From a virus (Duplodnaviria; Heunggongvirae; Uroviricota; Caudoviricetes): 20,973 nucleotides of DNA. Of the stretch, positions 1,014 through 20,254 are shown in pieces. Numbering within the stretch: position 1 is the first letter of the stretch; each line of letters opens with the position of its first letter. The notes beneath the pieces are model-generated. The model saw nothing but the letters and a program-made list of their open reading frames with translations. It had not been told where the DNA came from and did not search any database. Position numbers and translations under genes: made by a program. Location: IMG/VR virus record IMGVR_UViG_2778261696_000009, positions 1 to 20,973 of that record. One strand, 5' to 3'.

Positions 1014-1029
1014 AGATGAGTCATGATGG

Positions 1030-3363: not shown

Positions 3364-3377
3364 GGTGTTGTTCTCCT

Positions 3378-3626: not shown

Positions 3627-3716
3627 GGTCAGCCAGGCACAGGCGACAGCGCGACGGTAAAGGGCAGCGCGTAAGACGGGCGGTACCGCGATTCACTGAC
3701 GTCAGCCTCCGGCAGT

Positions 3717-3998
3717 ATGAAACGCCCGAAAAGAATGCTTGTTACCGGATATTGTTGTCGGAGATGTAAAGGCCTTGCACTGTCAAGAACATCGCGGCGT
3801 CTGTCTCAGGAAGTCACCGAGCGTTTTTATGTGTGCACGGATCCGGGCTGTGGTCTGGTGTTTAAAACGCTTCAGACCATCAACCGCTTCATTGTCCGCC
3901 CGGTCACGCCGGACGAACTGGCAGAAAGCCTGCATGAAAAACAGGAACTGCCGCCAGTACGCTTAAAAACACAATCATATTCGCTGCGTCTGGAATGA
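3717..3998 (+). CDS. delta: Ogr/Delta-family zinc-finger late-gene transcriptional activator (single-domain)
   Basis: Cys4 pattern CRRC...(x22)...CTDPGC, with SRTSR and RFIVRP segments that align by eye with phage P2 Ogr (C..C...ARTSR...KERY.QC....C...RYIVKP). 93 aa as called; an alternative start is the ATG at 3735. Confidence 0.8.
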   Translation: MKRPKRMLVTGYCCRRCKGLALSRTSRRLSQEVTERFYVCTDPGCGLVFKTLQTINRFIVRPVTPDELAESLHEKQELPPVRLKTQSYSLRLE

Positions 3999-4071
3999 GG
4001 GCTGCCGGTTAACACCGGCCGTCGCCGCACACCGTATTTTTATTCTTCAGCATGATGAGAAAGAGATAACG

Positions 4072-4644: not shown

Positions 4645-4680
4645 AATTCCCCGAAAATCCGCCCGTTTTTACTGAAAAAA

Positions 4681-4710
4681 GCCATGCATCGATAAGGTGC
4701 ATGGCTTTGC
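4681..4710 (+). terminator. Possible terminator hairpin after psu
   Basis: Inverted repeat GCCATGCA-(9-nt loop)-TGCATGGC at 4681-4705, followed by TTT. Modest intrinsic-terminator features. Confidence 0.35.
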
Positions 4711-4735
4711 ATGCGTTTCCCTGCCTCATTTTCTG

Positions 4736-4763
4736 CAGACCGCGCCATTCCCGGCGCGGTCTG
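4736..4763. other. Perfect 11-bp GC-rich inverted repeat (CAGACCGCGCC / GGCGCGGTCTG) with a 6-nt loop
   Basis: Seen directly at 4736-4746 and 4753-4763. Not followed by a T-run, so not a classical terminator. Lies in the psu-cos interval, so it could be a packaging- or protein-binding element. Confidence 0.4.
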
Positions 4764-4808
4764 AGCGTGTCAGTGCAACTGCATTAAAACCGCCCCGCAA
4801 AGCGGGCG

Positions 4809-4827
4809 GGCGTGGCGGGGGGAGCAT
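4809..4827. other. Degenerate cos-like site (P2/P4 cohesive-end-like)
   Basis: GGCGTGGCGGGGGGAGCAT matches the recalled P2/P4 cohesive end GGCGAGGCGGGGAAAGCAC at most positions. It sits where cos lies in P4 (after psu) and coincides with the sharp GC-rich to AT-rich transition. Confidence 0.4.
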
Positions 4828-4902
4828 TGCGCGCTAAGGCTGATATTATAATTTTCTTTAATTCTATTTGGTATTTTGGCTTTATTCGTCAGAAGGAACG
4901 TT

Positions 4903-4937
4903 TAGAAATAGACCACTACAATGGATTGTAGCGGTCT
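4903..4937 (-). terminator. Terminator-like hairpin downstream of the int-RT-partner gene string
   Basis: 12-bp stem AGACCACTACAA / TTGTAGCGGTCT (one mismatch) with loop TGGA at 4910-4937. On the minus strand it is followed by ATTTCTAAA and begins about 10 nt after the partner-gene stop. Confidence 0.45.
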
Positions 4938-4946
4938 GCATGATAT

Positions 4947-5687
4947 CTAGCGTTGCATTTCAGTTACTATGAAATTTTCTTCTGTAATAGAATTCATTAT
5001 CTCAAAGTACAATTCTTCAGGTTGAATAAACGCCAACTCTTTGCAAAGGTTGACAATGGTATCACTATAAGTGATACCCATCCGAGGATTGAAAAGCTCA
5101 AATCTCTTGATGTTTCTTTTGTTTTTTGAGTAAAAGTTTAAAGTGAAATATATTAGCACCTGTCTAAGATCGTAAACACTAAACTTCCTATCTCCTGATT
5201 TTATTTCCACAAGAACATTTGAATAATAAATATCGCCATATGAATTATTTATTACTCCGCATCCATCGAATTGTGGAGACACTTCAATTTGGTTTTCCAT
5301 TCCATATCGAGACAAAATGTTTCTTGCTATTTCCCTTATGGCATTGTACTCAACCATGCTTAAGGGTAGCTTGAAGTTAGAACCGTAAGCGAACCGCTGT
5401 AGATATTCTTTTGTTTTTTCAAAAACAACCTGAAAATCAGCATTATGGAAGATATCATGTGCTGAAAGAATATTTCTGTCTAACGAATCATTCTGTATTG
5501 CCCTATATAAATTAAATGCGCACTCATTAACAAAGACGTTATTTGACCTATTAGCGCAGTCATCTAGAGGAGGATAAACGTCCTCGATGAGACTGCCGTT
5601 AATGATGCGTATGAAATTATTAGCATTTGGAAGCAATTGATTCCAAAATGAAGTGAATTTTCGAGAAAACGTTAATTCAGATATCAT
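4947..5687 (-). CDS. Partner protein of the reverse transcriptase (246 aa, unknown family; possible nuclease-like effector)
   Basis: AT-rich ORF whose ATG overlaps the RT stop as ATGA (5684-5687). No family recognised by eye. Contains GDIYYSNVLVEIKSG, i.e. D-x9-E-x-K in a hydrophobic beta-like context, weakly reminiscent of a PD-(D/E)xK nuclease core. Confidence 0.7.
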   Translation of the reverse strand: MISELTFSRKFTSFWNQLLPNANNFIRIINGSLIEDVYPPLDDCANRSNNVFVNECAFNLYRAIQNDSLDRNILSAHDIFHNADFQVVFEKTKEYLQRFAYGSNFKLPLSMVEYNAIREIARNILSRYGMENQIEVSPQFDGCGVINNSYGDIYYSNVLVEIKSGDRKFSVYDLRQVLIYFTLNFYSKNKRNIKRFELFNPRMGITYSDTIVNLCKELAFIQPEELYFEIMNSITEENFIVTEMQR

Positions 5688-7312
5688 AGCGCATCCTCAA
5701 GATTTCTTGCGGTATGCCTTTTACTTGCCCAATCCCTGTAAATCACCTCTACAAAGTTGAATGTTTTCTTATTATGCTCTCTCCAGTGCCGTCCTTCATC
5801 ACCTAAGATGTAACTGGAAACGATCAATAGTCTTCTCTGCAACGGATGCATTGCAGAGAAATTTTTTTTGATATCAGAAAGCCATGCGTAAGAATTAATT
5901 TTTGCCATTGACTGTGTAACTATGTTCTTGACTAAGATGCTTTCTGGATTGTTATTGTATATTTCACTAAGGATTAGGGTGGATTTTTCTGAATTTTCTT
6001 TTGAGAGCATTCGGGCTACATAGGCTAAGTTGAGCTCAGTACTCAAAATATATGAATCTTGTTTAATTAGTGCAGTTATTTTATCAAGAATAATATCTTT
6101 GGTTTCTGTGCTTAATTTTTGCCAGTTGGAGTTAGCTACTTGAATTATAGTTGTAAATATTGGATATAACTCATGCAAGTTATTAAACATTACTTTGAAA
6201 GCACTACTTATTATTTCATCTGATGTTGCTGAGAATGCCTTTATCAAATGCTTGCTAAAAGATTGGTTAATTTTTGATTTTTGTAACTCACTACTCAGCA
6301 TAGCTAACAAGTCAAAATCTTTTAAAGATTCCTTTATCTCTTCATATTCCTCTATCGCATTTGCTGAGTAAGGATCGAATCTTATAGGAAGACTCATAAA
6401 TTTAGCCTTCATAGGAGATTCTTCATCTTCATCATTACCATGCAACTTAGCTTTAGTTACTGAAAGGAACTCTTCTTTAGTAACAATATTGGTTTTTTGT
6501 TTCTGTAAAGTTAGCCCTTCATTTTCCATCAGTTTTTTACTAAGCAAAGTTAAAATCTTATGAGCATCCTCTCTAGAGTTACAAAAAATAACAAAGTCGT
6601 CGACATAACGCTTATAGTTGATTCTATTCATAGACAATAATTTATCAATAGAATCTAGAGCTAGTTCTGCTAATATTCTAGAGGCAGGACATCCAACTGG
6701 TACTCCATATGATTTTGTTTCACTAAATGTCTGTAGTAATTTCTTGATTTTCCCAGAGTAATCTTTATTGGGGTCGACTCTATCTAACGCATTTTCTAAA
6801 CGGTGGTGATAAATACGCGGATAGAAATCTGCTATATCGCATGTAAGTACATACTTTATTTCATCGTTAGAACATTCAGAGATACTGTCTTCTTGATATT
6901 TTCTCCAAGAGATCTCTTTATCAAAAAGAGAACCATCAGCAAGGTTTGGTTTAAAGCGATATGAATAAACCTGCGTTTTAGTAGATCTATTCCTTTCAAT
7001 ATCATCAGCGATTTTTAAAACTAACCCAAGAAAAAAAGCATTCCAGAATGGATCAATTTGGGTCGCCCACCTGTAACCATAATAACCAATACTTGAAAAG
7101 CTATTAATTATGTTTGGTGGAATCTCGATCCTTTTATTTTCAAAGTCATTAAATGTTTGCATTAATGCAGTTTTTACTTTCTCCTTATCATCTTCAAATA
7201 ACCGACTTTCAAATGGGTAAGGGAAAATATCTGTATCGCCGTGCTTTATAATATTTTCCAATGCAAGCTCAAAGCAATTTTCTAGTTTACTACTATCAAA
7301 CTCGTTACTCAT
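5684..7312 (-). CDS. Reverse transcriptase (Abi/DRT-like defence-associated RT: N-terminal RT domain plus ~250-aa C-terminal helical domain)
   Basis: RT palm motifs in canonical order: LTCDIADFYPRI (motif A-like), GVPVGCPASRILAELAL (motif B-like), YKRYVDDFVIF (motif C, YxDD box). The C-terminal half has no RT motifs and contains GRHWREH (R-x4-H). The ATG overlaps the integrase stop (AATGAGTAA) with AAGGAG 7 nt upstream. AT-rich. Confidence 0.85.
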   Translation of the reverse strand: MSNEFDSSKLENCFELALENIIKHGDTDIFPYPFESRLFEDDKEKVKTALMQTFNDFENKRIEIPPNIINSFSSIGYYGYRWATQIDPFWNAFFLGLVLKIADDIERNRSTKTQVYSYRFKPNLADGSLFDKEISWRKYQEDSISECSNDEIKYVLTCDIADFYPRIYHHRLENALDRVDPNKDYSGKIKKLLQTFSETKSYGVPVGCPASRILAELALDSIDKLLSMNRINYKRYVDDFVIFCNSREDAHKILTLLSKKLMENEGLTLQKQKTNIVTKEEFLSVTKAKLHGNDEDEESPMKAKFMSLPIRFDPYSANAIEEYEEIKESLKDFDLLAMLSSELQKSKINQSFSKHLIKAFSATSDEIISSAFKVMFNNLHELYPIFTTIIQVANSNWQKLSTETKDIILDKITALIKQDSYILSTELNLAYVARMLSKENSEKSTLILSEIYNNNPESILVKNIVTQSMAKINSYAWLSDIKKNFSAMHPLQRRLLIVSSYILGDEGRHWREHNKKTFNFVEVIYRDWASKRHTARNLEDAL

Positions 7313-8489
7313 TCACATTCTCCTTAATAAAAATATAATCTGAATACCACTGCATCATATCACGGCGTTTATCAATATATTGAGCATGATTATACGTACC
7401 TCTAATATTATTCTTATCTATATGAGCAAGCTGTATTTCTATCCAAGCCGAATCATATCCTTTTTCGTGGAGGATAGTAGATAAGGAATGTCGAAATCCA
7501 TGACCAGTAAGTTTTCCACCATAACCAATACGCTTGATAACTTGGTTAATACTCGCCTCACTCATAGGCTTGTTCGGATCGTTCCGCCCCGGAAAAACAT
7601 AACTATACTTCCCTGTCATCATCTTGAGTTCATTTAGCAAATCTAACGCTTGAGTCGACAAAGGCACAAGGTGTGATCTGCGCATTTTCATCCTTTCAGC
7701 AGGAATTTCCCAAATAGCGTTATCTAAATCAAATTCTGACCATAATGCCGCACGTAATTCGATGGTTCTAACACCTGTAATCATGAGCAATTTCGTGGCA
7801 ATCAGGACAAGCCGACTTCCGGTATATCCGTTTAAGGCGCGAAGAAAATCAGGTATCTCATTAGCCTTTAAGAACGGGAAATGATTTGATTGGTGTACAT
7901 TGAGGGCGCTTGAAAGATCCGCAGCAGGGTTAAACTCAGCCCTTCCAGTAGCAATGGCATAGCGGAAAACTTCTGAGCATCGCTGCCGAACTTTGCGCAT
8001 TTTTTCTAATGCACCGCGCTTTTCGATTTTACGCAGCACATTAAGCAGTTCTAGCGGTTTAATCTCTCCCACTGGCCTTGTTCCCACATAAGGAAAAATG
8101 TCGTTCTTAAACGCTTCCATGATGTCTGATGCATATCCCGCCGACCATTTGGTAGACTTCTGTTGATGCCACTCTCTGGCTATCTTTTCGAAGGCGTTCT
8201 CTGACTCTGTTTGCAGAGCCAGCTTTTGCTCTTTTCGAACCTCACTAGGGTTCTTTCCTTCTGCCACAAGTTTTCGAGCTTCATCACGACGGGAACGAGC
8301 ATCAGCAAGAGTGATCGTTGGGTAAACACCAAGCGAGATCATTTTGGGTTTACCGGCATAGCGATAACGAAATCGCCAGCTTTTACTTCCATTTGGCTCT
8401 ACAAGTAAAGACAACCCTTGCCCATCCCCAAGTGTATAGGCTTTAGCTTCAGGTTTAGCACGGCGAATCTGCATATCATTTAGGGGCAT
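7305..8489 (-). CDS. int: P4-type tyrosine integrase (site-specific recombinase)
   Basis: 394 aa. N-terminal arm-binding-like region, then a tyrosine-recombinase catalytic region with R (LMITGVRTIELRA), HGFRHSLST (H-x-x-R) and a C-terminal RGTYNHAQY tyrosine region. Located at the element edge next to the candidate attR. Confidence 0.9.
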   Translation of the reverse strand: MPLNDMQIRRAKPEAKAYTLGDGQGLSLLVEPNGSKSWRFRYRYAGKPKMISLGVYPTITLADARSRRDEARKLVAEGKNPSEVRKEQKLALQTESENAFEKIAREWHQQKSTKWSAGYASDIMEAFKNDIFPYVGTRPVGEIKPLELLNVLRKIEKRGALEKMRKVRQRCSEVFRYAIATGRAEFNPAADLSSALNVHQSNHFPFLKANEIPDFLRALNGYTGSRLVLIATKLLMITGVRTIELRAALWSEFDLDNAIWEIPAERMKMRRSHLVPLSTQALDLLNELKMMTGKYSYVFPGRNDPNKPMSEASINQVIKRIGYGGKLTGHGFRHSLSTILHEKGYDSAWIEIQLAHIDKNNIRGTYNHAQYIDKRRDMMQWYSDYIFIKENVNE

Positions 8490-8727: not shown

Positions 8728-10092
8728 TTGAATCTTATAGAAAAATCATCATTTTCTATGCGTCACAATCAATTTTCACATTACAAACGCTCCGACACTT
8801 TAGCCGGAGATTTTATGAGATACAAGCCTAACCAATACTTAATCTGTGATTCTTACGGTAACTACTATTTAAGGATCACGCTGCCTGTGTATATGCAGCC
8901 CTTTTTTGAAGGAAAAAGGACGTTTGTCAGAAGTCTACACACAAGTAATCTTCGTGTTGCACGTAGAAAGCGTGATCAGATTGCAGATGAATACCATTGC
9001 TTACGGGAGAGTGTTGCCCCTGTAAACAGCACAATAGAAAACACGCTGGAACTGTTACGCAGTAAGGCTAAATACGCCAAAACAGCTACCAGAGTGCAAG
9101 ATACAGCGTCTTCGTGTCCGTCATTGCTTAAAATTCTTGAAATCTACCTGACAATTAACAGCACGAAGAAGAAGCCAGCCACTTTAGCTAAGGCAAGAAA
9201 AGCGGTAGAGATGTTTCTCTCCTACCGTAAAAAGCCTGATATTGCATTGCAAGATGTAAGCCGCACCACTGTTACAGGCTGGATTGAACACATGCAAAAA
9301 ACTCTTTCACAACAATCAATTGCAAATTATATCAGTCCAATGGCCCAGCTATGGGAATTAGCTTCATCACGTTACCACGATGCGCCAGAAAGGGCGCTCT
9401 CCCCCTGGCGAGGGCATAGGCTTGATGTGGCACAAAGTAGAGAGAGCTACGAGGCATTTTCTAACAAAGAGCTATTGCAGGTGTTGCAAGTATTTTCCGG
9501 TAATTCAGCAGAAAACAAAGAAATGACGGCTTTGTGTCTTATCGGTTTATATACAGGTATGCGGATCAATGAGATAGCAAGTCTCACAATAGACGATGTG
9601 AAAGAGATCGAAGGTGTGCTGTGTTTTGAAATCACACAGGGAAAGACGAAAGCTGCGGCACGTGTTGTGCCTGTGCATAACCTTATCACTCCGTTGGTGT
9701 TGTCGCTGCGTGAAAAGCCTCACAATGGCTTTTTGTTCTATCACGCCAGCATTACAGAACGTGCTGACGGTAAACGCTCTACGTGGCATACACAACGATT
9801 TACAAGAGCTAAACGAAAGGCTTTAGGGGAAAAGGGAACAGAAAGGAAAGTGTTTCATTCTCTGAGACACGGAGTAGCACAGCTTCTTGATCGAAATCAA
9901 ATTCCAGAAGACAGGATCGCCCTTCTCCTGGGCCATACACGCGGCAATACAGAAACATTCCGCACATATAGCAAAAATGCAGCTTCTCCAATAGAGCTTA
10001 AAAAATATATTGAGCTTTTACGCTACCCTGAAATAGAGAAAGGCTTATCAATCAATAAAAAATCAAATTTAAGGCGTAAAACAACGCTATAG
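8728..10092 (+). CDS. Second tyrosine recombinase / phage-type integrase (likely true start at ATG 8815)
   Basis: C-terminal catalytic signatures: YTGMRINEIASL (R), HSLRHGVAQLL (H-x-x-R), LLGHTRG and FRTYSK (Tyr). The in-frame ATG at 8815 has a GGAG RBS 5 nt upstream. Divergent from the P4-type int. Confidence 0.8.
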   Translation: MNLIEKSSFSMRHNQFSHYKRSDTLAGDFMRYKPNQYLICDSYGNYYLRITLPVYMQPFFEGKRTFVRSLHTSNLRVARRKRDQIADEYHCLRESVAPVNSTIENTLELLRSKAKYAKTATRVQDTASSCPSLLKILEIYLTINSTKKKPATLAKARKAVEMFLSYRKKPDIALQDVSRTTVTGWIEHMQKTLSQQSIANYISPMAQLWELASSRYHDAPERALSPWRGHRLDVAQSRESYEAFSNKELLQVLQVFSGNSAENKEMTALCLIGLYTGMRINEIASLTIDDVKEIEGVLCFEITQGKTKAAARVVPVHNLITPLVLSLREKPHNGFLFYHASITERADGKRSTWHTQRFTRAKRKALGEKGTERKVFHSLRHGVAQLLDRNQIPEDRIALLLGHTRGNTETFRTYSKNAASPIELKKYIELLRYPEIEKGLSINKKSNLRRKTTL

Positions 10093-10172: not shown

Positions 10173-10850
10173 CTATTGTTTAAATACTGGCGTTACAACG
10201 TCTTGCCCTGGGCTTTTTTGATTTTTCTGTTCTGTTGTATTTACCTGCATTTTAACCTGGCCTCCTACAGATTTATTTGGTGCTGTTTTTACCGCAATTG
10301 CGCTTGTAGTTGCTTTAGAGACAAGACGGATTTGCTCAAAATCAAGAGTAAACAATAGGCTTTCGCTTGCTTCTTCTTCGTAAGACATGCCAACTAACAC
10401 AACGTTGTCATAATTTTTTAACTCAGTGACAAGTAGGAAAGGTTGGCGACTGTCCATCAACTGATTTAGGTATTCAAGCATAAGCATACGTCGATTGCCG
10501 TTAATTCCAGCATTCTTAATCATATCAGGATTGAGCTTCAATACGGTTTCAGAGATACGCCCTTGTAATGTGAACTTGTTATTCCGTATTTGAACATGAT
10601 CACTAACTTCTGATCCTGATTCGACGGCATAGCTTGTAACGTCCGCATTTCTGCTAACTTTCGTCGATTCCACGCTATCAAATGATAATGCCTGGTAGTC
10701 ATTGTAAGCAGCATTTGCACCACTGCCGAGATTAGAGGTAATGATCGCAAAGCCGTTACCCCCTTTGGTTGTTCTACCGTTGCTATCGTTGCTTGTGCTG
10801 TTGATTTTCGCCTCAGTCGGGCGACCAATGGTTAACGGACCCATTGCCAT
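10173..10850 (-). CDS. Hypothetical protein (225 aa), last gene of the structural-looking operon
   Basis: ORF with AAGGA RBS upstream of the ATG at 10850; Ser/Thr/Asn/Gly-rich N-terminus. Follows the 613-aa gene on the same strand. Function not recognisable by eye. Confidence 0.5.
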   Translation of the reverse strand: MAMGPLTIGRPTEAKINSTSNDSNGRTTKGGNGFAIITSNLGSGANAAYNDYQALSFDSVESTKVSRNADVTSYAVESGSEVSDHVQIRNNKFTLQGRISETVLKLNPDMIKNAGINGNRRMLMLEYLNQLMDSRQPFLLVTELKNYDNVVLVGMSYEEEASESLLFTLDFEQIRLVSKATTSAIAVKTAPNKSVGGQVKMQVNTTEQKNQKSPGQDVVTPVFKQ

Positions 10851-10897
10851 AATTTGTAATCCTTATTTAAGGGGGCTAAACAGCCCCACAGTGATGA

Positions 10898-12739
10898 TTA
10901 ATAGGTTGACCCGCCTGACATAACACCCAGCGTTAATAGCTTGCTAAACTCAGCGGAGGATGCCTTTGATTTGAAGTCGATAAATTCGCTCAATCGTCCG
11001 GTGTCTGATTCGATAGTTAGCGGCACTTCTGCATTTACTTGTAATTCTGGATTGAAGTTAATAACAGGTGCAAAGGTGTAAGAAGGAGCCTTGAAAGCTT
11101 GTTGTGCTGCACTCTGTTTCAGATTTGCAATGTTTTGTCCTTCGAGACTGTATTGATTTACAGCCTGCGCCCCACCTACCGTTTCTTCTGGCATAAACCA
11201 GCTTTTAATAGTGTTAACCAGGGAATTGCTGTTATCTGGCTTAGTTGTTCCGGTGCCAGCGCCTTTATATTGATCAGGAGTGAGATTAGAAAGATTCTGC
11301 TTCATTCCTTCGTTAGATAGTGGCGGTGCATCCCCTAAATTCTTCTGAATAGCTTCCGTCTTCTCGTCGTTTTTCATCAGCCAGTTGATTGTTTTCATTA
11401 CGGCGTTAACCAATCCGCCGATAGCCTCGCCTAATTTGGTAAACATTGGCAGCATTGCAACCATGCTCTTTTTAAACTCTTCAATCACTTTCGGATCAAG
11501 AGATTTCATAAAGCCATCAACAAAGGCGATCCCTTGTGAGTCAGAAAGCCCACTAAGTGCATTATTCAGTTCACGGAATTTAATAACGCTTTCCTGTTGT
11601 GCCTGTGTTACCCAGCGCCCTGATTCTCGTTGTTCTCGTGCTGATTGTTCCACTTCTTTAGCGGAGCGTGTCCAGTATTTAGAGGTGAGCATCAAATCAT
11701 CAGCCAGATCTTCCAGACGACTACCGATTTGTGCATCTGAATAGCCTTTCTTCACCATTCCCTGAACTGCTTTACTAACCAGACCAGCCGGATTATCAGC
11801 AAAGTCTTTTAGATCCTTTTTAGTTAAGAATCCTTCATTCATTAAAGTATTGATGCCGCTATCGCCGCCCTTCCATTCACCTTTGCCTGTTTTTTTATCG
11901 ACTACATATTCAGCCTCATCATAGCTTTTGGTTGCACGCTCACGCACATCTTTCATCTGATCGAGATACTTACGTTTACCTTGATCCCCCATCATTGAAT
12001 CAACGCCGTTTTTGTAGGCCCATTGCTCAATATTGTTCATCTGGTTAACGTCTACACCGCCCAGCTTCGCACGGCTATACAATTCACCCAGCGTTTCAGC
12101 ATTCGCAAAGCTGTTAGTAACAAATTCAGAGGCTTTGCTCATAGCCATATACGTAGCGCCAGCGCCTAAGCCACCCAGCATAACAGCCGCAGCACCGCCG
12201 CCAATACTCCCGCTACCCTTAACAGGTGCATAGGCTTTAGCGTGAGCGTTACGATTGCCATTAATCTTACGTTGTTGCTGTTGTAGGCGTTTCATTTGGC
12301 TATTCATACGTGCCAGACTAATAGCTCCTCTTTCATATTGGAGGGCAATTTCTCTAGCCTGTGCAATAGCTTTATATTGTTCCGCTACAGAAAGGCGGTG
12401 CAATGCACTAATGCTTGATCCAACGTCTAACAGTTTTAAGTCTGCCTTCTCTTTGCGTGCTGCCAGGGCTTTTTGTTCTCTTGCAACTACACGTTGAGCG
12501 GCTAATTGTGCTTTAGCATTGGCTTTATCTGCCTGTGCTTGCTTTTTAGCAATATCGTCTACGTCTTTTTTTGCTTTAGAAGTTGATTGTTTATGTGTCT
12601 TAACACGCAATTCTATATCTTTCACCGCCGCCATTTGTTTACGAAGTTTTTCTACTTCTGCTTTTGCTTTCTCTAATGATGGTCGATCAACCTGGAAGGT
12701 GACAACGTTTGATAAGCGGCTGACGTTAAGTTCTAACAT
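10898..12739 (-). CDS. Large coiled-coil / glycine-rich protein (613 aa), tape-measure-like or scaffold-like
   Basis: N-terminal ~150 aa strongly charged Lys/Ala/Gln-rich heptad-like sequence, then a Gly-rich hydrophobic segment (GSGSIGGGAAAVMLGGLGAGATYMAMS). This architecture is typical of phage tape-measure or internal virion proteins; the assignment is tentative. Confidence 0.6.
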   Translation of the reverse strand: MLELNVSRLSNVVTFQVDRPSLEKAKAEVEKLRKQMAAVKDIELRVKTHKQSTSKAKKDVDDIAKKQAQADKANAKAQLAAQRVVAREQKALAARKEKADLKLLDVGSSISALHRLSVAEQYKAIAQAREIALQYERGAISLARMNSQMKRLQQQQRKINGNRNAHAKAYAPVKGSGSIGGGAAAVMLGGLGAGATYMAMSKASEFVTNSFANAETLGELYSRAKLGGVDVNQMNNIEQWAYKNGVDSMMGDQGKRKYLDQMKDVRERATKSYDEAEYVVDKKTGKGEWKGGDSGINTLMNEGFLTKKDLKDFADNPAGLVSKAVQGMVKKGYSDAQIGSRLEDLADDLMLTSKYWTRSAKEVEQSAREQRESGRWVTQAQQESVIKFRELNNALSGLSDSQGIAFVDGFMKSLDPKVIEEFKKSMVAMLPMFTKLGEAIGGLVNAVMKTINWLMKNDEKTEAIQKNLGDAPPLSNEGMKQNLSNLTPDQYKGAGTGTTKPDNSNSLVNTIKSWFMPEETVGGAQAVNQYSLEGQNIANLKQSAAQQAFKAPSYTFAPVINFNPELQVNAEVPLTIESDTGRLSEFIDFKSKASSAEFSKLLTLGVMSGGSTY

Positions 12740-13122: not shown

Positions 13123-14154
13123 TTACGCAGCAGATCCGAAGATGATAGCTTGCGGAATGTTGTTTACTGGCAGATAAGATGTCTCAGTAACCACAGATGG
13201 GAATTGGAATTCATCCTTGATTAGATATTGGTGATGCAACACGGCATCTTGACCTAACTCAGCATGACGCACACCAACGCCGCTATGAAGCTGGTAACAC
13301 TGTGCCGCTTTATCCATTACCGGAACAATTGCGAAACCGTTCTCTCCGATGTGAGCAACAATCTCAGGAAACATTGACACATCAATAACAGTGATCCCAC
13401 CAATCTGGAAAGAGTCATAGGCTGGGTTAGAATCAACCATACGGGTAAACAGGGCCGTAGCACTCGCATCGCCTGCATATTTCACCATGTCACTGATCAG
13501 CGGGTTAGATGACAAACCATCAGCAGCAGTGCCAGCAGCAAAGATAATTACACCAGTTCGCTTTGCAGCAAGACCAGACCCCAGCTTTTCACTCTGTAAG
13601 CGCACCGCTTTACGAATAGCAAGGAACGGGTTAACAGTAGTCGATGCAAAGTCGATAGCGGGTACCGTGGTTTTAGCCTGACCGTCGAGGAAGTCGAGAT
13701 CACCTTGTCCGGCATATTCAGATTCAACTTTCAGGCCCAGCAGCGCGGTAATCAGATCCACTTCAACACGGTTTGCGTGTGAACGGTAATGAGCCTCAGA
13801 GAAATCATTAACCGCTACCAGCATAGCATCAGAACGGTTTGGATATTGGCGGCTGTATTGTTCCAGGTCACGAGAAGTAACAGCGTTAATACTGCCGACG
13901 TGTTTCATCTGGAAAAGTTTGTTTGACCATTCCTGACGTTTAGAGGCGTTCCAGTCGCTTTGAGCGTAAGGCGAGGTTTCCCCAGCTACCTGCACAAACT
14001 GATCAATCAGGTCGGTAAGAAGAATGCTGTTTTCTGTATGATATTGCACATCGAACAGATCGAGATTAGTAATCAGGGTATTAAGTGCATTCTCATAAGC
14101 AAATGGAGTTACTACCGCAGTATTAACGCCAAAATATGTTGATAAATCATTCAT
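13123..14154 (-). CDS. Putative major capsid-like protein (343 aa); identity tentative
   Basis: Strong RBS (AAGGAAA, 8-nt spacer). Size and position immediately after a ~127-aa decoration-like gene mirror the lambda-type D-E (decoration, major capsid) arrangement. No direct sequence match could be verified by eye. Confidence 0.55.
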   Translation of the reverse strand: MNDLSTYFGVNTAVVTPFAYENALNTLITNLDLFDVQYHTENSILLTDLIDQFVQVAGETSPYAQSDWNASKRQEWSNKLFQMKHVGSINAVTSRDLEQYSRQYPNRSDAMLVAVNDFSEAHYRSHANRVEVDLITALLGLKVESEYAGQGDLDFLDGQAKTTVPAIDFASTTVNPFLAIRKAVRLQSEKLGSGLAAKRTGVIIFAAGTAADGLSSNPLISDMVKYAGDASATALFTRMVDSNPAYDSFQIGGITVIDVSMFPEIVAHIGENGFAIVPVMDKAAQCYQLHSGVGVRHAELGQDAVLHHQYLIKDEFQFPSVVTETSYLPVNNIPQAIIFGSAA

Positions 14155-14168
14155 TATTATTTTCCTTG

Positions 14169-14552
14169 TTAAGTCGTAGGGATCGCAAGTTCTTCATAAC
14201 CAGCAATTACAAAGCCGAGAGATTGCAGTTTTGCAATAACACTTGCCTTTTCCATGCTGTTAAATTCAATCCCATCTTCAGCCAGAATAACGAAAGTAGG
14301 ATGTGCAACCACTACGCTTTCCTGTCCTTCATAAGCCGGTTCAACTACTACGTGAGCAATATCAGATGCGGTTGTTGCTTTGGTGCCATCGGCTTTCAGC
14401 AAAGCCCCGACAATAAGATCGTCAGTGAGAGGTGAAGCCAGTTTGACGAGGCGATCTTGCAGCACTGGATCAGCAGCGTAAGCTACTACCTTACAGCGTG
14501 AACGGGAGTTATCCGCATTCACTGCTTTTAATTTTCCATATGGGTTAGCCAT
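14169..14552 (-). CDS. Putative head-decoration-like / small structural protein (127 aa); identity tentative
   Basis: RBS AAAGGAAAA embedded in the end of the upstream small gene (tight coupling). Ala/Val/Gly-rich beta-looking sequence; size and position are consistent with a capsid decoration protein. Confidence 0.5.
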   Translation of the reverse strand: MANPYGKLKAVNADNSRSRCKVVAYAADPVLQDRLVKLASPLTDDLIVGALLKADGTKATTASDIAHVVVEPAYEGQESVVVAHPTFVILAEDGIEFNSMEKASVIAKLQSLGFVIAGYEELAIPTT

Positions 14553-14556
14553 AAGA

Positions 14557-14754
14557 TTATTTTCCTTTCAGTTGTTTAATTTTAGATTTAAGGGCATCAG
14601 CAAGACTAACCGCATCAGCCGATTTAAATAATTGAGCAGTGGTAGAACGAAGACTTTCGGGAGTAACTCCCAACAGTGCGGCAACCTTAATGAGGTTTTC
14701 ATCACTAACAATCATCGTTTCCCCGTCTTTGCTGATAATCATTTCTTGTTTCAT
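14557..14754 (-). CDS. Small protein (66 aa from ATG 14754; the track calls a TTG start at 14796), first gene of the structural-looking operon
   Basis: ATG at 14754 is preceded by AGGAAC. Its stop overlaps the RBS of the next gene. Confidence 0.45.
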   Translation of the reverse strand: MKQEMIISKDGETMIVSDENLIKVAALLGVTPESLRSTTAQLFKSADAVSLADALKSKIKQLKGK

Positions 14755-15738
14755 AAATAATGTTCCTGTTAGTGCCAGACAAATAAAAAGCCCCAATGCC
14801 GTAAGAGGTTAATTCTGACCAGCAAAGGGGCTTTAACGTGCGGGCAATTACATAATTGATAAGTTAAACTATAAGAGGATTAAACATATCAGCAAATACA
14901 CTTTTTAAATATACTTGATGATATGCTTAAAGGGTGAATAGATACTCCTGAAAACATGCTCTTAGGAAAACATGCGGAATCAATCAGGAATATCTATTCG
15001 GGGCGCGGTGGCCAACCGCTATCTTTCATGGTGTGGATGCACCAGTCAGATTTTAAGGAATCACTATTCCAATCTACTCACAGATTAAATTTTTAATAAT
15101 GATTAACTACACCAACAGTAATCTACCGTTTCAGAAAATCGTTTTTACAACCAAAGCTTATAGATCCGCATTCTATAAAACCCGTTTTGCTATCAATATT
15201 TCCAAAGTTTATTGCACCATTCTTAGCTAAACTCTCTCTGCTTGCGGCTAACGCTATGCAGATGATTGTTTTTGACAACAACTTAATAGATTATTCTGTT
15301 ACTAACTTCTGTCATTAAATAATAGTTTAATGATGTTAGTAAATAGTTATAAAATATAACTATCAGTGTAAGGCTCTTTAATGTTTTCTGACAAAATAAG
15401 GAGCTTTAGGATAAGCATAGATGAAAAATAATAGCGGGAAGGGCAAGGAGATAACACCTACCCGCTTTTATCAAAATTAAGCACAATGCCTAACAACATT
15501 CATCAACACAACGTAGAAACAATCAACAATCAAAGAGGGAGTTATGATTATTCTAAAACTTCTTGAGAGATGGAAGGTAATATTTGTTAGAGGTTAATGC
15601 CACTCAACCTTTGAGGCTATCACCTTCCATATGCAGGGATTTATGACAGTAGAAGGATTAACACCAACTAAAATCTTTTTATCTACCCCTAAAATTATTA
15701 TATAACAAAATCATTATAAATGCAAATAATTTTCATTA

Positions 15739-16038
15739 TCATTTAGAGAAAATAGCACTTTTTGCTAAATCATCTACTAATTGCTGAATCTCTTCACTTG
15801 CAACCTTTAACGTGGTGGCGATGTCTGTGATGATTTGATTACACTGTTTTGCATCGTCCTCTGATACGCTCACCAGAGAGATAAAATCGTCAAGGCTTAC
15901 ATTCACCTTCATTAAGCTAATAACGCATTGAGAGAGCGTGTAATCGCATAAATCTGAATAGGCTTGATTTATTCTTGTTTGTAGTGAGATAGTCAGATCT
16001 AAAAGTTGTTCCATTGCATTGCTAATATCTTCTTCCAT
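15739..16038 (-). CDS. Small hypothetical acidic protein (99 aa)
   Basis: ATG overlaps the stop of the upstream gene (TAATG); AAGGAG RBS 9 nt upstream. Last gene of a minus-strand string of small ORFs. Confidence 0.5.
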   Translation of the reverse strand: MEEDISNAMEQLLDLTISLQTRINQAYSDLCDYTLSQCVISLMKVNVSLDDFISLVSVSEDDAKQCNQIITDIATTLKVASEEIQQLVDDLAKSAIFSK

Positions 16039-16240
16039 TATGCGTATTCTCCTTGTAATGCATCATTAATCATATTCAATACGATGTTAAAAGGTGTCTT
16101 GAGCGTCAGCACTTCATCACGGTAACGCTCTAATGCTTCGTAGTCTTCTGTTTCTTTTGCCAGCCGAATTAACTCTGCATAGTTTTTTGCATCAGACAGG
16201 ATCATCTGAAATAATTGTGTTTCTTGAATATAGCCAATCA
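16038..16240 (-). CDS. Small hypothetical protein (67 aa from ATG 16240; the track extends to 16283)
   Basis: ATG at 16240 has an AGGA-containing RBS (AAAAAAGGAAAAATAATG); the upstream ATG at 16283 has none. Stop overlaps the next start. Confidence 0.5.
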
Positions 16241-16298
16241 TTATTTTTCCTTTTTTGAATATTTTCATTGGGCGCTTATACATACACCCATCATTTTA

Positions 16299-16682
16299 TT
16301 AGTTAGAACGTTTGTTAGAAGCTAATGTATCTTCTAAATGAGCCATCAGATCGACTTCCGATGCACCACCTACACAATTATTGAAAGCGTTAAATCCCAA
16401 AAAATGATGATAGGAGCTAAACCCTAAAAGCTGCCAACGTTTCAGAGTGCCATCAGAAATGATAGTTTGTTTTCTTGTTCTTGGGCGAAAGTAAACGCCT
16501 GGCATTGATTGGATTATTTCTAATTCTTCATCACTTAATTCAGGGGATTCTGTTTCAAGAATAAAGATTATCTCTTCCCCTGGAATTTCGTTATTGGTGT
16601 GTGTCGGTGGACGTTGTCTTTTTGAATTGAAATTACTGTTTTTTTCAATACGTTTTAAGTTGTTCTTTTTCTTTCTTCCCAT
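16299..16682 (-). CDS. Hypothetical protein (127 aa) with a highly basic N-terminus
   Basis: RBS AGAGGGA upstream of the ATG. N-terminus MGRKKKNNLKRIEKNSNFNSKRQRP is Lys/Arg-rich, suggesting a nucleic-acid-binding tail. Confidence 0.5.
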   Translation of the reverse strand: MGRKKKNNLKRIEKNSNFNSKRQRPPTHTNNEIPGEEIIFILETESPELSDEELEIIQSMPGVYFRPRTRKQTIISDGTLKRWQLLGFSSYHHFLGFNAFNNCVGGASEVDLMAHLEDTLASNKRSN

Positions 16683-16779
16683 TTTTCCCTCTTTTTATGT
16701 GGATTATAAAAACTGGACGCCATTGTTACGATGAATATCGCCATAAATGCATTTGCCATATGTATTGCCCGATCTGTTG

Positions 16780-17049
16780 TTATTGATTGTTTGTGAGAAA
16801 CAATTCAAAATCTTTGTTTAATTTCAAAAGACGAAATGTAGTGCTGTTAATCCCTTCATAATCCAGCACACCGAACGATGTAAAATGATTTAACCAATGA
16901 TTTACGTGTTGTGCGCTGTAGCCGCCTAAACTACAAAAGCTAACCACTGTCGGTGGTGAAAACTCTATGTCCAAAATAGCTTTTAAAATGTTGTATCCGC
17001 TTTCAGTTATTTCAATAGTTTTGTTTCCTATAGTGATGTTATAAGTCAT
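16780..17049 (-). CDS. Small hypothetical protein (89 aa)
   Basis: AAGGAG RBS 7 nt upstream of the ATG; immediately downstream of the winged-helix gene. Confidence 0.5.
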   Translation of the reverse strand: MTYNITIGNKTIEITESGYNILKAILDIEFSPPTVVSFCSLGGYSAQHVNHWLNHFTSFGVLDYEGINSTTFRLLKLNKDFELFLTNNQ

Positions 17050-17058
17050 TTATTCTCC

Positions 17059-17727
17059 TTAGAAGGGTAGTGAATCATATATTGTGCTCTCACTTTTGAG
17101 ATCAATTATCAAAGAGTCAAAATCATTTTCACAAAGATAGATATTCTTTGAATCTAATGCTCGTTTTACAAAATCTTCTGTTTCTTCGTGCGGTGGTTTC
17201 TTCTTATCAAGGGAAAGAAGCCAAGTAAAAATTTCGGGCCGCTCAGGGAACTCTGGCTCTTGTGTTTCTTCTTCAACGATGATTTCGGAAACATTCAATA
17301 TTTCATTAGATTCGTCTTCTTTCTCAGAAGGATCAGGTAGTGATGACTCTCCAGGGGGAGTAATATGTGCATCTGTGAATGGTAATGCTTTATAGAGTGA
17401 TGTTTGCCCGTCCCGAGCCTCTACAGAAAGAACTCCCATATCAACAAACATATTTATAATATTGCGAACCTGGCGATCACTAACCATTCCAATATTAGAT
17501 AATGTTTTTTGAGTGGCGTAACATTCTTGCCCTTGTTCATTGAATCCAGCTATATAGCTATAGATTTCAACGGCTGGCAGTGTAGCGGTGTATTCATTAC
17601 CTGACGGTGAGAACCACTTTTTAAACATCTTCAACCACTGCTCAACGACTACATATTTTTGTTTACCATCTTTCTGATTTAGACATTTGGCTTTCGCTTC
17701 GGCAATTGTTTTGATATTTTTGATCAT
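17059..17727 (-). CDS. Winged-helix DNA-binding protein, replication-initiator / replisome-organiser-like (222 aa)
   Basis: AAGGAGG RBS 6 nt upstream of the ATG. Central segment QKTLSNIGMVSDRQVRNIINMFVDMGVLSVEARDG looks like a winged HTH of Rep/DnaD-type initiators, followed by an acidic C-terminal tail. Confidence 0.6.
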   Translation of the reverse strand: MIKNIKTIAEAKAKCLNQKDGKQKYVVVEQWLKMFKKWFSPSGNEYTATLPAVEIYSYIAGFNEQGQECYATQKTLSNIGMVSDRQVRNIINMFVDMGVLSVEARDGQTSLYKALPFTDAHITPPGESSLPDPSEKEDESNEILNVSEIIVEEETQEPEFPERPEIFTWLLSLDKKKPPHEETEDFVKRALDSKNIYLCENDFDSLIIDLKSESTIYDSLPF

Positions 17728-17851
17728 TTAGTTCCTCCTTTGTAAGGACTGTAATTAGTAATTCATTAACAAGTTTTGGAATTGATTTCCCTTCTGCCTT
17801 TGCACGATTTAACAACGCGTTATAAGTTGCAGAATCAAAATTAATATTCAT
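17663..17851 (-). CDS. Ribbon-helix-helix (CopG/Arc/ParG-like) DNA-binding protein
   Basis: N-terminal SATYNALLNRAKAEGKSIPKLVNELL fits a beta-strand plus two helices RHH signature. GGAGAAGGAG RBS upstream. The 3' 65 nt overlap the start of the downstream gene. Confidence 0.55.
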   Translation of the reverse strand: MNINFDSATYNALLNRAKAEGKSIPKLVNELLITVLTKEELNDQKYQNNCRSESQMSKSERW

Positions 17852-17874
17852 TTGGTTTTCTCCTTCTCCTGTTA

Positions 17875-18057
17875 TTATTCTTTCTCTGCTCCTGCCTTAC
17901 GCAGTTCATCAATAATTTTTAGTGCATCGTCAAAACATTTTTCACGCTCTGGATAACCACAGCGTCGCGCTGTGTTCCTATTCATTCTTACCCTAAAGCG
18001 GTTGATCTCACCACGTTTCCAGGCTTCAACTACATCTTGAGAAGTGAAATACTTCAC
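17875..18057 (-). CDS. Small protein (60 aa), first gene of the regulatory operon (GTG start)
   Basis: GGAGG RBS 7 nt upstream of the GTG at 18057; candidate sigma70 promoter ~115 nt upstream. Confidence 0.45.
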   Translation of the reverse strand: MKYFTSQDVVEAWKRGEINRFRVRMNRNTARRCGYPEREKCFDDALKIIDELRKAGAEKE

Positions 18058-18180
18058 TAATTAACCTCCTATTCTATTTGGTTAAAAGAAAAAGACACCT
18101 TGCAAGCCTCTTGGGCTTCAAAGTGCGGTGCATTGGTTTAATTATTTAGAGGATAGGAATGTTTTCCTGTCCCTAATATT

Positions 18181-18209
18181 ACTTTACCATAACTAAAGGC
18201 TTTTGTCAA
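18181..18209 (-). promoter_or_regulatory. Candidate sigma70 promoter for the minus-strand regulatory operon (TTGACA-N17-TAAAGT)
   Basis: On the minus strand: -35 TTGACA (plus 18204-18209), 17-nt spacer, -10 TAAAGT (plus 18181-18186). A dyad AGGAA-N4-TTCCT at 18155-18168 lies just downstream and could be an operator. Confidence 0.35.
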
Positions 18210-18542
18210 CCCCCGCCCATAAAATATTGATCATTTTTCAGTATGTTATGATTTTGCTTAGCAATTCGTGCTCTTCTGTGTGATGCTATTCTTCCTTATT
18301 CTCTAAAACGCGTTCTAACGAGGTTTTGATAAAAACAATACATTCCCTTATGTAATGACAGTTTAGCTCGCCAGAGGTTTATTTAAGGGGCTTATTTTGT
18401 ATTTGTTAGGTATATGAAAAGGAGATGATAGATAAACTCTAATTTCAGACACCTTATAAAATACCTGTAAAGCTCCTCAGAAGCTCTATAATGAGCTAAT
18501 CTATTACCGCTAAGGTTTCCCTGCCTTATATACGTTTAGCTC

Positions 18543-18809
18543 GCCTACGGCTTGATTTAAGCGGTAGAAACTTATTTAACCTTCAACTACTAAAACCATT
18601 CTTTCTTTTTTGTTTGTTGTTGGTTGTTGTCTGTGTCTATGTGCTAACATCGCTAACGCGTAGCACACAAGGTTATTGCACTCGTCAGAGTATTGCACAA
18701 TAGATTTTCTCTTAAATAGATTGATGATCGTTAGATTGGCGTAAGCCTCATCAATGGAACTATTGAAGCGCACAGCGCAAGACTATTTAGCCTTACGCAA
18801 GCCGTAGGC
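18543..18809. repeat. Perfect 12-bp inverted repeat pair (GCCTACGGCTTG / CAAGCCGTAGGC) flanking ~240 bp
   Basis: GCCTACGGCTTG at 18543-18554 and its exact reverse complement at 18798-18809; flanking bases extend the match imperfectly. A related direct repeat GTTTAGCTCGCC occurs at 18361-18372 and 18534-18545. Confidence 0.5.
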
Positions 18810-18893
18810 TATTTGCACATAGTAGATTACATATTCGTTGTGAGCGGCATTAGCGAACATAGATCTACTAACTAACATCAACAAACAAAAACT
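18607..18893. repeat. Imperfect ~55-bp inverted repeat pair (TTTTTGTTTGTTG... arms)
   Basis: 18607-18660 versus the reverse complement of 18836-18893: the first 13 nt are identical (TTTTTGTTTGTTG), then partial identity including CTATGT and CGCTAA. Confidence 0.4.
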
Positions 18894-19040
18894 ATGTGTT
18901 ATGACAAGCAGTCTAACGACTAACACTCTAACTTGTGCAAGGTTCTGGCGAATGCCAATAGATTAAGGGTATAATTATTCTTATAAAGATAAAAAAGAAT
19001 TATATTATATAGTTTAATTGTAGTTTAATTATAGTATTGT

Positions 19041-19140
19041 CGGAAATCATTTCCTAGGTGATAGGAACTCATTTCCTAGGTAGGTAGGAAACCACTTCCA
19101 CGGTTATTTCCTAAATAGATCGGAACTCATTTCCCAGGTG
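19041..19140. repeat. Iteron array: 4-5 tandem ~22-bp repeats with a palindromic core GGAAATCATTTCC
   Basis: Units at 19041-19060 (cGGAAATCATTTCCtaggtg), 19063-19082 (aGGAACTCATTTCCtaggta), 19086-19105 (aGGAAACCACTTCCacggtt), a partial unit at 19106-19118, and 19121-19140 (cGGAACTCATTTCCcaggtg). Each carries the dyad GGAA-N5-TTCC. Confidence 0.6.
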
Positions 19141-19646
19141 TTATTTATACTTATCGGGTATCAGACTTGATAGGGGTAGCTCACAGTGACCTACCGTTAC
19201 ATCCAATCATCACATAGCATCTGTGCAATGATCTTCTAAAAGTGTTTCTTGCTACCAAAATTAAACATCTAAAACAGGCTTAAATTCAATGTAATTGATG
19301 ATTAATCCCTGTGTAATTCCTACGTAAAAATCCAATGAAAAGTAGCTTAAAAAGTGCAATGTTAGCTTTCTTCACTTTTACATCACTTTCGCAAAGCCTT
19401 GTGTAATACGGCTTACAGAGCACTATCAGAAATTGTTGATTAAAAATCAATCTATTATTTGTCGAACAAGTTTCCTTTAATGCAACAAAAAATTATTTTT
19501 TCAAAATAAACACACTATTTAATAGCTTGCTAATTTTACCAAAATGTAACTACATGATTCTCATGCAAGACGTGTAGTGATAAAGCAGGCTAAATCACCA
19601 CACTAAAAACCTTCGAATTTCGTAGTGAAAAAAGTCCTTTACACAC

Positions 19647-19689
19647 CTAATCAACACGATCAATAATCACTACACACAAATCAACACAG
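19647..19689 (+). promoter_or_regulatory. Direct AATCAACAC repeats immediately upstream of the serine recombinase gene
   Basis: AATCAACAC at 19649-19657 and 19679-19687, with ATCAATAATCAC between. Position suggests a promoter/operator or recombinase binding site. Confidence 0.3.
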
Positions 19690-19696
19690 AAGGAAA

Positions 19697-20254
19697 ATGA
19701 AAATGGCTAATATTGGATACATTAGGGTATCGACTGTGCAACAAAACACAGACCGTCAATTAGCTGGAGTAACTCTTGATAAAGTCTTTGAAGATAAAGC
19801 GTCAGGCAAGAACACTCAGCGCCCACAGTTTGAGGCAATGATGAACTATGTGCGGGAGGGTGACGTGTTACACGTCCATAGTATTGATCGCCTTTGTCGT
19901 AATACAGCCGACCTTCTGGCAACGGTTGAGCAATTAACAGAGCGCGGCGTGTCTGTGCATTTCCATAAAGAAGACTTTAAGACAGGGAAGAACTCTCCCG
20001 CAGGGAATATGATGCTCACAGTGCTTGCAGCAGTGGCACAAATGGAACGTGAAATGATGCTTGAGCGGCAGCGTGAGGGGATCGCCGCAGCTAAGGCCGC
20101 TGGACGTATAGCAAAACGTGGTAATGGAAAAGCAATTGATCGAGCGGGAATTGTTGCCGCTCTCGCGAATGGTGGATCAATTCGGAGCGTAGCAAAAGAT
20201 TTCAGTGTCAGCACACAGACGGTGCAACGTATCAAGAAAGAGCAGGAAGCGTAA
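19697..20254 (+). CDS. Serine recombinase (resolvase / DNA invertase family)
   Basis: N-terminal IGYIRVSTVQQNTDRQ contains the catalytic Ser in the Y-x-R-V-S-T context typical of resolvase/invertases. C-terminal GGSIRSVAKDFSVSTQTVQRIKK is an HTH. ~185 aa. The more likely start is the second ATG at 19703 (AGGA RBS). Confidence 0.85.
   Translation: MKMANIGYIRVSTVQQNTDRQLAGVTLDKVFEDKASGKNTQRPQFEAMMNYVREGDVLHVHSIDRLCRNTADLLATVEQLTERGVSVHFHKEDFKTGKNSPAGNMMLTVLAAVAQMEREMMLERQREGIAAAKAAGRIAKRGNGKAIDRAGIVAALANGGSIRSVAKDFSVSTQTVQRIKKEQEA

Follow-up and report, generated by a model that had tools for sequence, protein, structure and literature searches.

Four orphan genes ahead of the capsid genes of an Escherichia coli island: candidate takeover or late-switch factors of a putative satellite of phi92/phAPEC8-type phages

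The stretch of DNA considered here (the window, 20,973 nucleotides, positions 1 to 20,973 of IMG/VR virus record IMGVR_UViG_2778261696_000009) carries, 3' of a winged-helix gene, four small adjacent open reading frames (ORF1 to ORF4) for which a first-pass annotation, made from the letters alone, could offer a choice of anti-defence proteins, toxin-antitoxin pairs or host-takeover factors. The question raised by this locus is what kind of element the four genes belong to, and what they might do for it. They are read here, with a probability of roughly 0.4, as the distal half of the early operon of a satellite integrated at thrW in Escherichia coli, encoding helper-takeover or late-switch factors. 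The parts of this reading differ in strength. From its gene content, the island can be called, with fair confidence, a satellite of phi92/phAPEC8-like lytic myophages, or at the least an island parasitic on them; its induction and packaging would, we infer, depend on such a helper; and the assignment of ORF2 to ORF4 to a takeover or late-switch module is made with low confidence.

The four ORFs are real, conserved protein-coding genes. They are present with the lengths first given for them, on the minus strand (which the first-pass annotation had not named), and the ribosome-binding sites claimed for them can be read as a Shine-Dalgarno sequence ahead of every start: AAGGAG before the ORF1 ATG at 17049, which lies 10 nucleotides past the stop codon of the gene for the 222-residue winged-helix protein; AGAGGG before the ORF2 ATG at 16682; AAGGA before the ORF3 ATG at 16241; and AGGAG before the ORF4 ATG at 16038, where the ORF3 stop and the ORF4 start overlap in the sequence TAATG, just as had been noted. 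A mechanically called ORF3 begins at 16283 and has 81 residues, with no Shine-Dalgarno sequence; the form of 67 residues, which is also that of the RefSeq annotation, is favoured because AAGGA precedes its ATG. The very basic N-terminus ascribed to ORF2 corresponds to a computed isoelectric point (pI) of 11.6 for residues 1-34, and the acidity ascribed to ORF4 to a pI of 4.05; ORF3 has a pI of 4.3, and the G+C content of the four ORFs is 0.355. All four are annotated as coding sequences in RefSeq, and the block that they form occurs, with 60-100% identity, in 292 of 5426 complete E. coli genomes (100% identical in many chromosomes); about 5% of complete E. coli genomes carry the island, and its carriers include the strains EC12, MS1718, B7A and O104:H4 C227-11. 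Median pairwise ratios of nonsynonymous to synonymous substitution rates (dN/dS), computed over 9-15 distinct alleles from retrieved loci, are 0.29 for ORF1, 0.19 for ORF2, 0.12 for ORF3 and 0.51 for ORF4, beside 0.05-0.20 for the capsid, tape-measure and tube-initiator genes of the element, and these values indicate that all four genes are under purifying selection, with ORF4 the least constrained.

The description of the four proteins as being of unknown function also held, since none of them rose above sub-threshold noise in Pfam, PHROGs, NCBIfam or PADLOC. A tblastn search with the four ORFs (concatenated) gave no match in 50,697 phage genomes and, among 72,556 plasmids, only two copies, both of the same element. 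Profile searches of the PDB with the ORF1, ORF2 and ORF4 families gave no match; in a large protein collection the relatives of ORF1 and ORF4 were confined to Escherichia; and profiles of ORF1, ORF3 and ORF4 had no match in a full Justusliebigvirus proteome. Two lone weak matches of distant ORF4-position proteins to that proteome were set aside, the profiles having given them no support. The four proteins are orphans, and their interest comes mainly from their position in an apparently undescribed satellite family.

In complete genomes, the block lies within an island of ~12.8 kb between a tRNA-Thr gene (thrW, beside proA) and a tyrosine integrase gene (Table 1). The minus-strand genes encode, in order, a 60-residue protein, a ribbon-helix-helix (RHH)-like protein of 62 residues (unannotated by RefSeq in this allele), the 222-residue winged-helix protein and the four ORFs; a non-coding gap of 940 bp is followed by head genes of 65, 127 and 343 codons and then by genes of 65, 613 and 225 codons, and the integrase gene is on the opposite strand. 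The first-pass annotation was thus borne out in that the four ORFs are tightly coupled, belong to the early region of a mobile element and directly follow the winged-helix gene on the same strand. The structural proteins are homologous to those of phage phi92: the capsid family profile matches Phi92_gp124 over its full length (E 8e-25), with relatives carrying PF03864; the 613-residue protein matches Phi92_gp134, the tape measure (E 4.5e-22); the 225-residue protein matches Phi92_gp135, the tail-tube initiator (E 7e-54); and the 127-residue head protein matches a phage ORF located just upstream of the capsid gene (E 0.01). By tblastn, the tape-measure and initiator homologues are 38-40% identical to sequences in 368 phage records, mostly of phAPEC8/phi92-type Stephanstirmvirinae. 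The only phage DNA with high identity to the island also comes from Stephanstirmvirinae: a patch within the winged-helix gene (17315-17632) is 93-94% identical to an early gene of these phages, and a second patch (17699-17865, the RHH gene) is 98% identical to their DNA, the phages that bear the patches being Mt1B1_P17, muut, inny, PaulScherrer and VEcB. Identity of 93-98% points to recent exchange with this subfamily. The G+C content of the island, 0.40, is close to the 0.376 of these phages and far from the 0.47 of a neighbouring P4-like island. No portal, protease, terminase, sheath or baseplate set was found among the ORFs of the island, and a search by phage DNA similarity found no cos, pac or terminal-repeat mimic in its non-coding regions. 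What was found, then, is an integrase-bearing island in the satellite size range (~10-15 kb) with an incomplete complement of virion and packaging genes, linked to a helper through its homologues of gp124, gp134 and gp135 and through the nearly identical DNA patches.

Table 1. Features of the thrW island in the window (positions are those of the window)
Feature	Position	Strand	Remarks
ORF1, 89 aa	16780..17049	-	pI 5.4; small winged-helix-like; accessory member of the group
ORF2, 127 aa	16299..16682	-	Core member of the triad; Arg/Lys-rich N-terminal arm
ORF3, 67 aa	16038..16241	-	Acidic, helical
ORF4, 99 aa	15739..16038	-	Acidic, probably a helical hairpin; fast-evolving, mosaic
Sigma-70-like promoter, TTTGCA-18-TATAAT	15697..15726	-	13 nt past the ORF4 stop
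Intrinsic-terminator-like hairpin and U-run (T1)	15425..15466	-	-17.9 kcal/mol, z = -3.3
Conserved structured non-coding block, ~130 nt, three hairpins	14940..15071	-	Also in L004 (11708-11845) and L006 (11232-11366)
Terminator-like hairpin and U-run (T2)	14785..14843	-	-25.6 kcal/mol, z = -3.5; directly upstream of the head genes
First gene of the early operon, 60 aa	17875..18057	-	Conserved across the element family
62-aa RHH-like ORF	17663..17851	-	DNA 98% identical to a Justusliebigvirus gene; E 1e-31 against the VEcB proteome
222-aa O-like/DnaD-like winged-helix protein	17059..17727	-	HTH_36, phrog_270; probable replication initiator
Head module: 65-aa gene, 127-aa gene, 343-aa major capsid protein	13123..14754	-	
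Homologues of the tape measure (613 aa) and of the tail-tube initiator (225 aa)	10173..12739	-	
Tyrosine integrase	8728..10092	+	At the element's far end; the thrW (tRNA-Thr) side falls just outside the window

Relatives of the island were found at several of the retrieved loci (L002, L004, L006, L028 and L031-L033), and every contig long enough to judge, whether from E. coli, Serratia, Winslowiella or metagenomes, has the same order of genes. On the early side, a winged-helix initiator (or a helicase-like protein) is followed by a member of the ORF2 family, usually a gene of 65-76 codons, and a gene of 100-142 codons with a mostly acidic product; on the late side, a gap of 480-900 nucleotides is followed by a 65-88-residue protein, a 116-128-residue protein, a Phage_cap_E capsid protein and a protein of ~65 residues; and at the far end are a gene of ~615 codons, usually a tube-initiator-like gene, and then the integrase gene. 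ORF2-ORF3-ORF4 is a conserved positional triad, and what directly follows it is always a leader with promoter and terminators and then the head genes. ORF2 and the ORF4-position gene are the core of the family, and ORF3 is core within one subfamily. The locus L027 differs in having a tube-initiator-like gene between its winged-helix genes and the triad, from which it follows that the triad is linked to the leader and head genes and not to the initiator.

Two further features of the family may be recorded here. The contigs of L004 (GCA_009819915.1, 14.3 kb) and L006 (SRR10378058, 12.4 kb) are circularly permuted with respect to the integrated form, the tape-measure end being joined to the early-operon end in 12-15 kb contigs of this type, an arrangement that suggests an excised or episomal state; L006 lacks an integrase and has genes for a CapR-domain protein and an Imm_superinfect protein. 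The E. coli elements have either of two head modules (65-69, 118-127 and 342-343 residues; the module of this window may be compared with L017 6164-7774), the capsid proteins of which are ~19% identical, whereas the flanking leader, tape-measure and tube-initiator genes are >90% identical. The two types of head module may reflect matching to different helpers.

The leader that separates the triad from the head genes has a sigma-70-like promoter at its start and a terminator-like hairpin at its end, with another such hairpin and a structured block in between. The block of ~130 nucleotides is kept in elements whose proteins are only ~50% identical; RNAalifold gives it 17 base pairs, six of them with compensatory double changes, and its G-U pairs fit an RNA transcribed from the gene strand. 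It has no match in Rfam. The corresponding gaps of L031, L032 and L033 cannot be aligned with this one, yet in each of them a near-consensus promoter closely follows the ORF4-position gene and an intrinsic terminator closely precedes the head genes, so that a promoter followed by terminators precedes the head genes in four mutually unalignable lineages. Conservation of a promoter, a leader and terminators ahead of the capsid genes suggests that late expression needs either read-through or activation.

ORF2 is the one member of the group with a detectable connection to the presumed helper. Its profile retrieved only 36 cluster representatives among 1.84 billion proteins, from E. coli, Serratia liquefaciens, Winslowiella iniecta and metagenomes, and the family members have 60-135 residues, with the exception of two long proteins (327 and 1,223 residues) that match weakly in several short stretches. 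The N-terminus of the family varies in sequence and is Arg/Lys-rich in all members: the basic arm reads MGRKKKNNLKRIEK in ORF2 and MGRKERNxLxRIER in relatives, its character being conserved. The protein also has an acidic beta-alpha-beta core with the motif SPxLSxEExxII..GVYFKPRxR (family-wide, SPxL(S/T)xEExxII and then GV(Y/F)(F/Y)KPRxR) and a C-terminal helical module, (K/R)WQxLGFxSxxHYxGW...DxDL. Structure prediction, which the first-pass annotation had proposed as a check, yielded an AlphaFold2 model of ORF2 (mean predicted local distance difference test score, pLDDT, 78), and a search with this model found no fold match. A role as a small terminase or an Rpp-like redirector of packaging was considered and met with no terminase match in Pfam or PHROGs and, again, no fold match. 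Searched against 1770 stop-to-stop segments of one complete Justusliebigvirus genome, the ORF2 profile has a single match (hmmsearch E 4e-4), to an 86-residue ORF that is gp076 of phi92 (phrog_15807), located between nrdA and gp077. Alignment of the ORF2 family with phi92 gp076 by hhalign has a probability of 91.3% over 34 columns (ORF2 82-114 with gp076 44-79). The two have in common a C-terminal module of ~35 residues, GF-x4-H(F/Y)-x-G(F/W)L...G(Y/F)DVD(V/L)L, which runs through the ORF2 family; gp076 differs in its length of 82 residues, in having neither the basic arm nor the SPxL..GVYFKPR core, and in its location in a phage cluster for nucleotide metabolism, beside nrdA. This similarity is short, yet no other tie connects one of the four proteins with anything else, and it fits a pattern in which the island is built partly from diverged parts of its helper phage.

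The gene directly 5' of the four ORFs suggests a different role, since the ORFs follow an O-like initiator as lambda P, ren and nin follow O. They would then be replication accessory proteins that act at the element's origin, loading or modulating the helicase or replisome of the host or of the helper. The winged-helix protein with which the ORFs are co-transcribed matches replication-initiator PHROGs, and it ends in ...DSLPF, like the tail of the single-stranded DNA-binding protein (SSB); in L004 and L006, the slot of the triad is preceded by a helicase-like protein of 485-492 residues; and ORF4 has a very weak match in NCBIfam to the psi subunit of DNA polymerase III (E 1.6e-4). With 21 bits against a cutoff of 162, however, this last match is far under its threshold, and a search of the PDB with the ORF4 profile did not reproduce it, for which reason the identification of ORF4 as psi was dropped; no loader, primase or helicase family is matched by any of the ORFs; and in L027 the triad goes with the leader and the head genes, apart from the winged-helix genes. 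We consider a replicative role unlikely. As to the winged-helix protein itself, its phage homologue is longer (328 residues) and comprises two O-like winged-helix repeats and an endonuclease domain; by eye, the C-termini of the 222-residue protein (...STIYDSLPF) and of its L031 relative (...DEEYILPF) resemble the C-terminal tip of SSB.

The other three proteins of the group differ in their conservation. Homologues of ORF1 occur only in E. coli-type elements (85 residues, 50% identical, in L004; 87 residues, 29% identical, in L006), the gene is missing from L020 and L024, and about half of its database clusters are truncated; on these grounds ORF1 is a dispensable accessory protein, small and winged-helix-like. 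The positional counterparts of ORF3 in L033, L032, L026, L004 and L006 have weak but consistent homology to it (E 2e-11 to 2e-3), and it is missing from L003, L012, L020 and the Serratia-type relatives, the last of which retain the ORF4-position gene. The positional counterparts of ORF4 are barely homologous to it. ORF4 itself forms 138 clusters at 90% identity, every one of them from Escherichia; its alleles are mosaics of N-terminal, middle and C-terminal variants; and between its two predicted helical halves, at about position 57 of the protein (window 15860-15880), a short in-frame tandem-repeat polymorphism changes the number of ELS tripeptides, of which the allele in this window has none and other alleles have up to three to four. 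Such mosaicism and repeat variation, together with the dN/dS of 0.51, is the behaviour expected of a protein with a changing partner. The name 'transporter' that NCBI attaches to many copies of ORF4 was discarded, having no supporting match in any family library searched. The one-base overlap of the ORF3 stop with the start of the ORF4-position gene is retained in L004, L006, L032 and L033, and therefore the two proteins would be produced in a fixed ratio and probably form a complex.

Variability of this kind might also be read as the mark of cargo, for anti-defence or host takeover, that blocks host restriction, CRISPR, other immunity or host functions. The genes are small and early, ORF3 and ORF4 are acidic (pI 4.1-4.3), ORF4 is highly polymorphic under relaxed constraint, and ORF1 and ORF3 vary in presence and absence. 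Anti-defence genes usually occupy variable cargo slots, however, and the variable cargo of this family lies in another place, between the early operon and the integration site, whereas ORF2 and the ORF4-position gene form a fixed core in every relative across genera. The absence of homologues from the phage genomes searched by tblastn also speaks against cargo of this type, as does the content of acidic residues in ORF4, which at ~17% is well under that of classic DNA mimics such as Ocr. A cargo-type role is not supported, the order ORF2-ORF3-ORF4 being a conserved core feature and not a variable cargo slot, and we consider it quite improbable. What is kept from the first-pass annotation, with partial support, is the idea of takeover by a mobile element, with a phi92/phAPEC8-type helper phage, instead of the host, as the likely target.

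A morphogenetic role is more improbable still. In this reading ORF3 and ORF4, perhaps joined by ORF2, would serve as scaffold-like or size-determining factors that bring the capsid protein of the element, or that of the helper, into small capsids, comparable to Sid, CpmA/B and TcaP. Such a role would suit short, acidic, helical proteins made in a coupled ratio and encoded next to a head module, and an element of 12-13 kb must need a capsid much smaller than that of a 150-kb helper; but a promoter and two terminators stand between the ORFs and the head genes, and the ORFs are co-transcribed with replication and regulatory genes instead. The small genes that the head module itself has upstream of the capsid gene are better candidates for scaffold or decoration proteins, and the alleles of the ORFs do not track the two very different types of head module. 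The toxin-antitoxin option of the first-pass annotation, with ORF3 and ORF4 as a type II pair that stabilises the island, has in its favour that the element is mobile and that the two genes are small and overlap by one base at stop and start. It is all the same the least supported alternative, and very improbable. Neither protein has a match to a toxin or antitoxin family in Pfam, NCBIfam or PADLOC (E <= 0.01-0.1), each of them is acidic and helical, and a DNA-binding antitoxin domain is present in neither. Nor is ORF3 strictly co-inherited with ORF4: some elements that are otherwise intact lack it, as do the Serratia-type relatives, although the ORF4-position gene is retained, and a pair of this type would not be expected to lose just one partner.

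The interpretation preferred here, a takeover or late-switch role for ORF2 to ORF4, can be put as a sequence of steps. Infection by the helper would lead to expression of the early operon. ORF2 may act as an adaptor, its Arg/Lys-rich arm binding nucleic acid and its gp076-like module engaging the partner of gp076 in the infected cell, and ORF3 and ORF4, in their fixed ratio, may assemble into a small, acidic complex whose target is a protein of the helper or of the host. Together, the three proteins would either move the element on from replication to the expression of its late (capsid) genes or redirect functions of the helper to the satellite. A more specific version, in which the triad would be a new kind of module and ORF2, by means of a gp076 mimic and a putative nucleic-acid-binding arm, would bring about read-through of the leader terminators into the capsid genes of what would be the first described phi92/phAPEC8-type satellite family, is doubtful.

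Several observations weigh against a takeover or late-switch role. No homology or fold match in the family libraries, the PDB or the fold searches ties any of the four proteins to transcription, to packaging or to a helper protein. The similarity of ORF2 to gp076 extends over 34 columns only, and gp076 is itself without a known function. The alleles of ORF2 do not co-vary with those of the head module or the initiator; because its allele types track neither the initiator alleles nor the two E. coli types of head module, co-evolution is uninformative. A covariance model found the RNA block of the leader in E. coli-type elements only and not in distant relatives, and the leader contains no T4-type late promoter (TATAAATA). 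The late genes could be driven entirely by factors of the helper, and the status of the island as a satellite is itself drawn from its gene content.

Among known regulatory systems, the late switch of lambda (N/nut and Q/pR'-tR') offers the closest layout: there, too, small regulatory genes end the early operon and a constitutive-looking promoter, a short leader and intrinsic terminators precede structural genes. The Arg/Lys-rich arm of ORF2 is reminiscent of the arginine-rich motif of N, and the leader of the island has conserved hairpins. In contrast to lambda, ORF2 has neither homology nor a fold match to N or Q and is not the first gene past a promoter, no boxA is present on the gene strand, and the conserved covarying hairpins lie downstream of the first terminator.

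Among known satellites, the phage-inducible chromosomal island-like element (PLE) of Vibrio cholerae, a satellite of the lytic myophage ICP1, is likewise an integrase-bearing chromosomal island, as this one appears to be, tied to a lytic myophage, and its early operon, like that of the island, is rich in small orphan proteins; a CapR-domain protein is found in the relative L006. The small orphan ORFs of PLE turned out to be factors that hijack the helper. PLE belongs to another host and another helper family, the general searches made here gave the four ORFs no sequence homology to its genes, and to our knowledge it has no major capsid protein, tape measure or tube initiator of its own, unlike this island. 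The cf-PICIs of Enterobacterales (phage-inducible chromosomal islands that form capsids) resemble the island in being of satellite size and in encoding their own HK97-fold capsid protein, and the island would, like them, form small capsids. They are described as encoding all of the proteins for small capsids and for DNA packaging and as taking only tails; compared with cf-PICIs so described, the island is without portal, protease and terminase and has homologues of the tape measure and tube initiator, and its structural genes derive from lytic phages of the phi92 type. The literature searched contains no satellite of this description or of these phages, which is not proof of novelty, and a gene content of capsid and tail-core proteins without portal or terminase was likewise not found described there.

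The surroundings of the operon deserve brief mention. The 1.6 kb upstream of it (18057-19697) contains nothing convincing as an ORF and nothing that matches phage DNA, and its equivalent in strain HN257 (L002 11486-13654) is also unannotated. Behind the island, a P4-like satellite (window 1-8489) is inserted, which carries a DRT8 defence system on the minus strand (4947-7312), made up of a reverse transcriptase (5684-7312) with its PDDEXK partner (4947-5687). The slot that holds DRT8 here is occupied in strain GPEC874 by a retron St85 system. In E. coli O157 Sakai, early genes of the element 'Sp1' at thrW have been reported to be induced by mitomycin (PMC2669165); Sp1 was rejected as a lead, being a lambda-like remnant unrelated to this element.

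The Stephanstirmvirinae (the phi92/phAPEC8 group) are widely isolated and are on trial for phage therapy and for biocontrol of pathogenic E. coli. An island such as this would be expected to parasitise or to block these phages, and either effect bears on host range and on the outcome of therapy. The four orphan genes, above all the ORF2-ORF4 triad, are obvious candidates for factors that sense or redirect the helper, and they therefore constitute a small, defined set of experimental targets. If the reading is true, the island would represent the first described satellite family of phi92/phAPEC8-type coliphages, and one equipped with a capsid protein, a tape measure and a tube initiator of its own.

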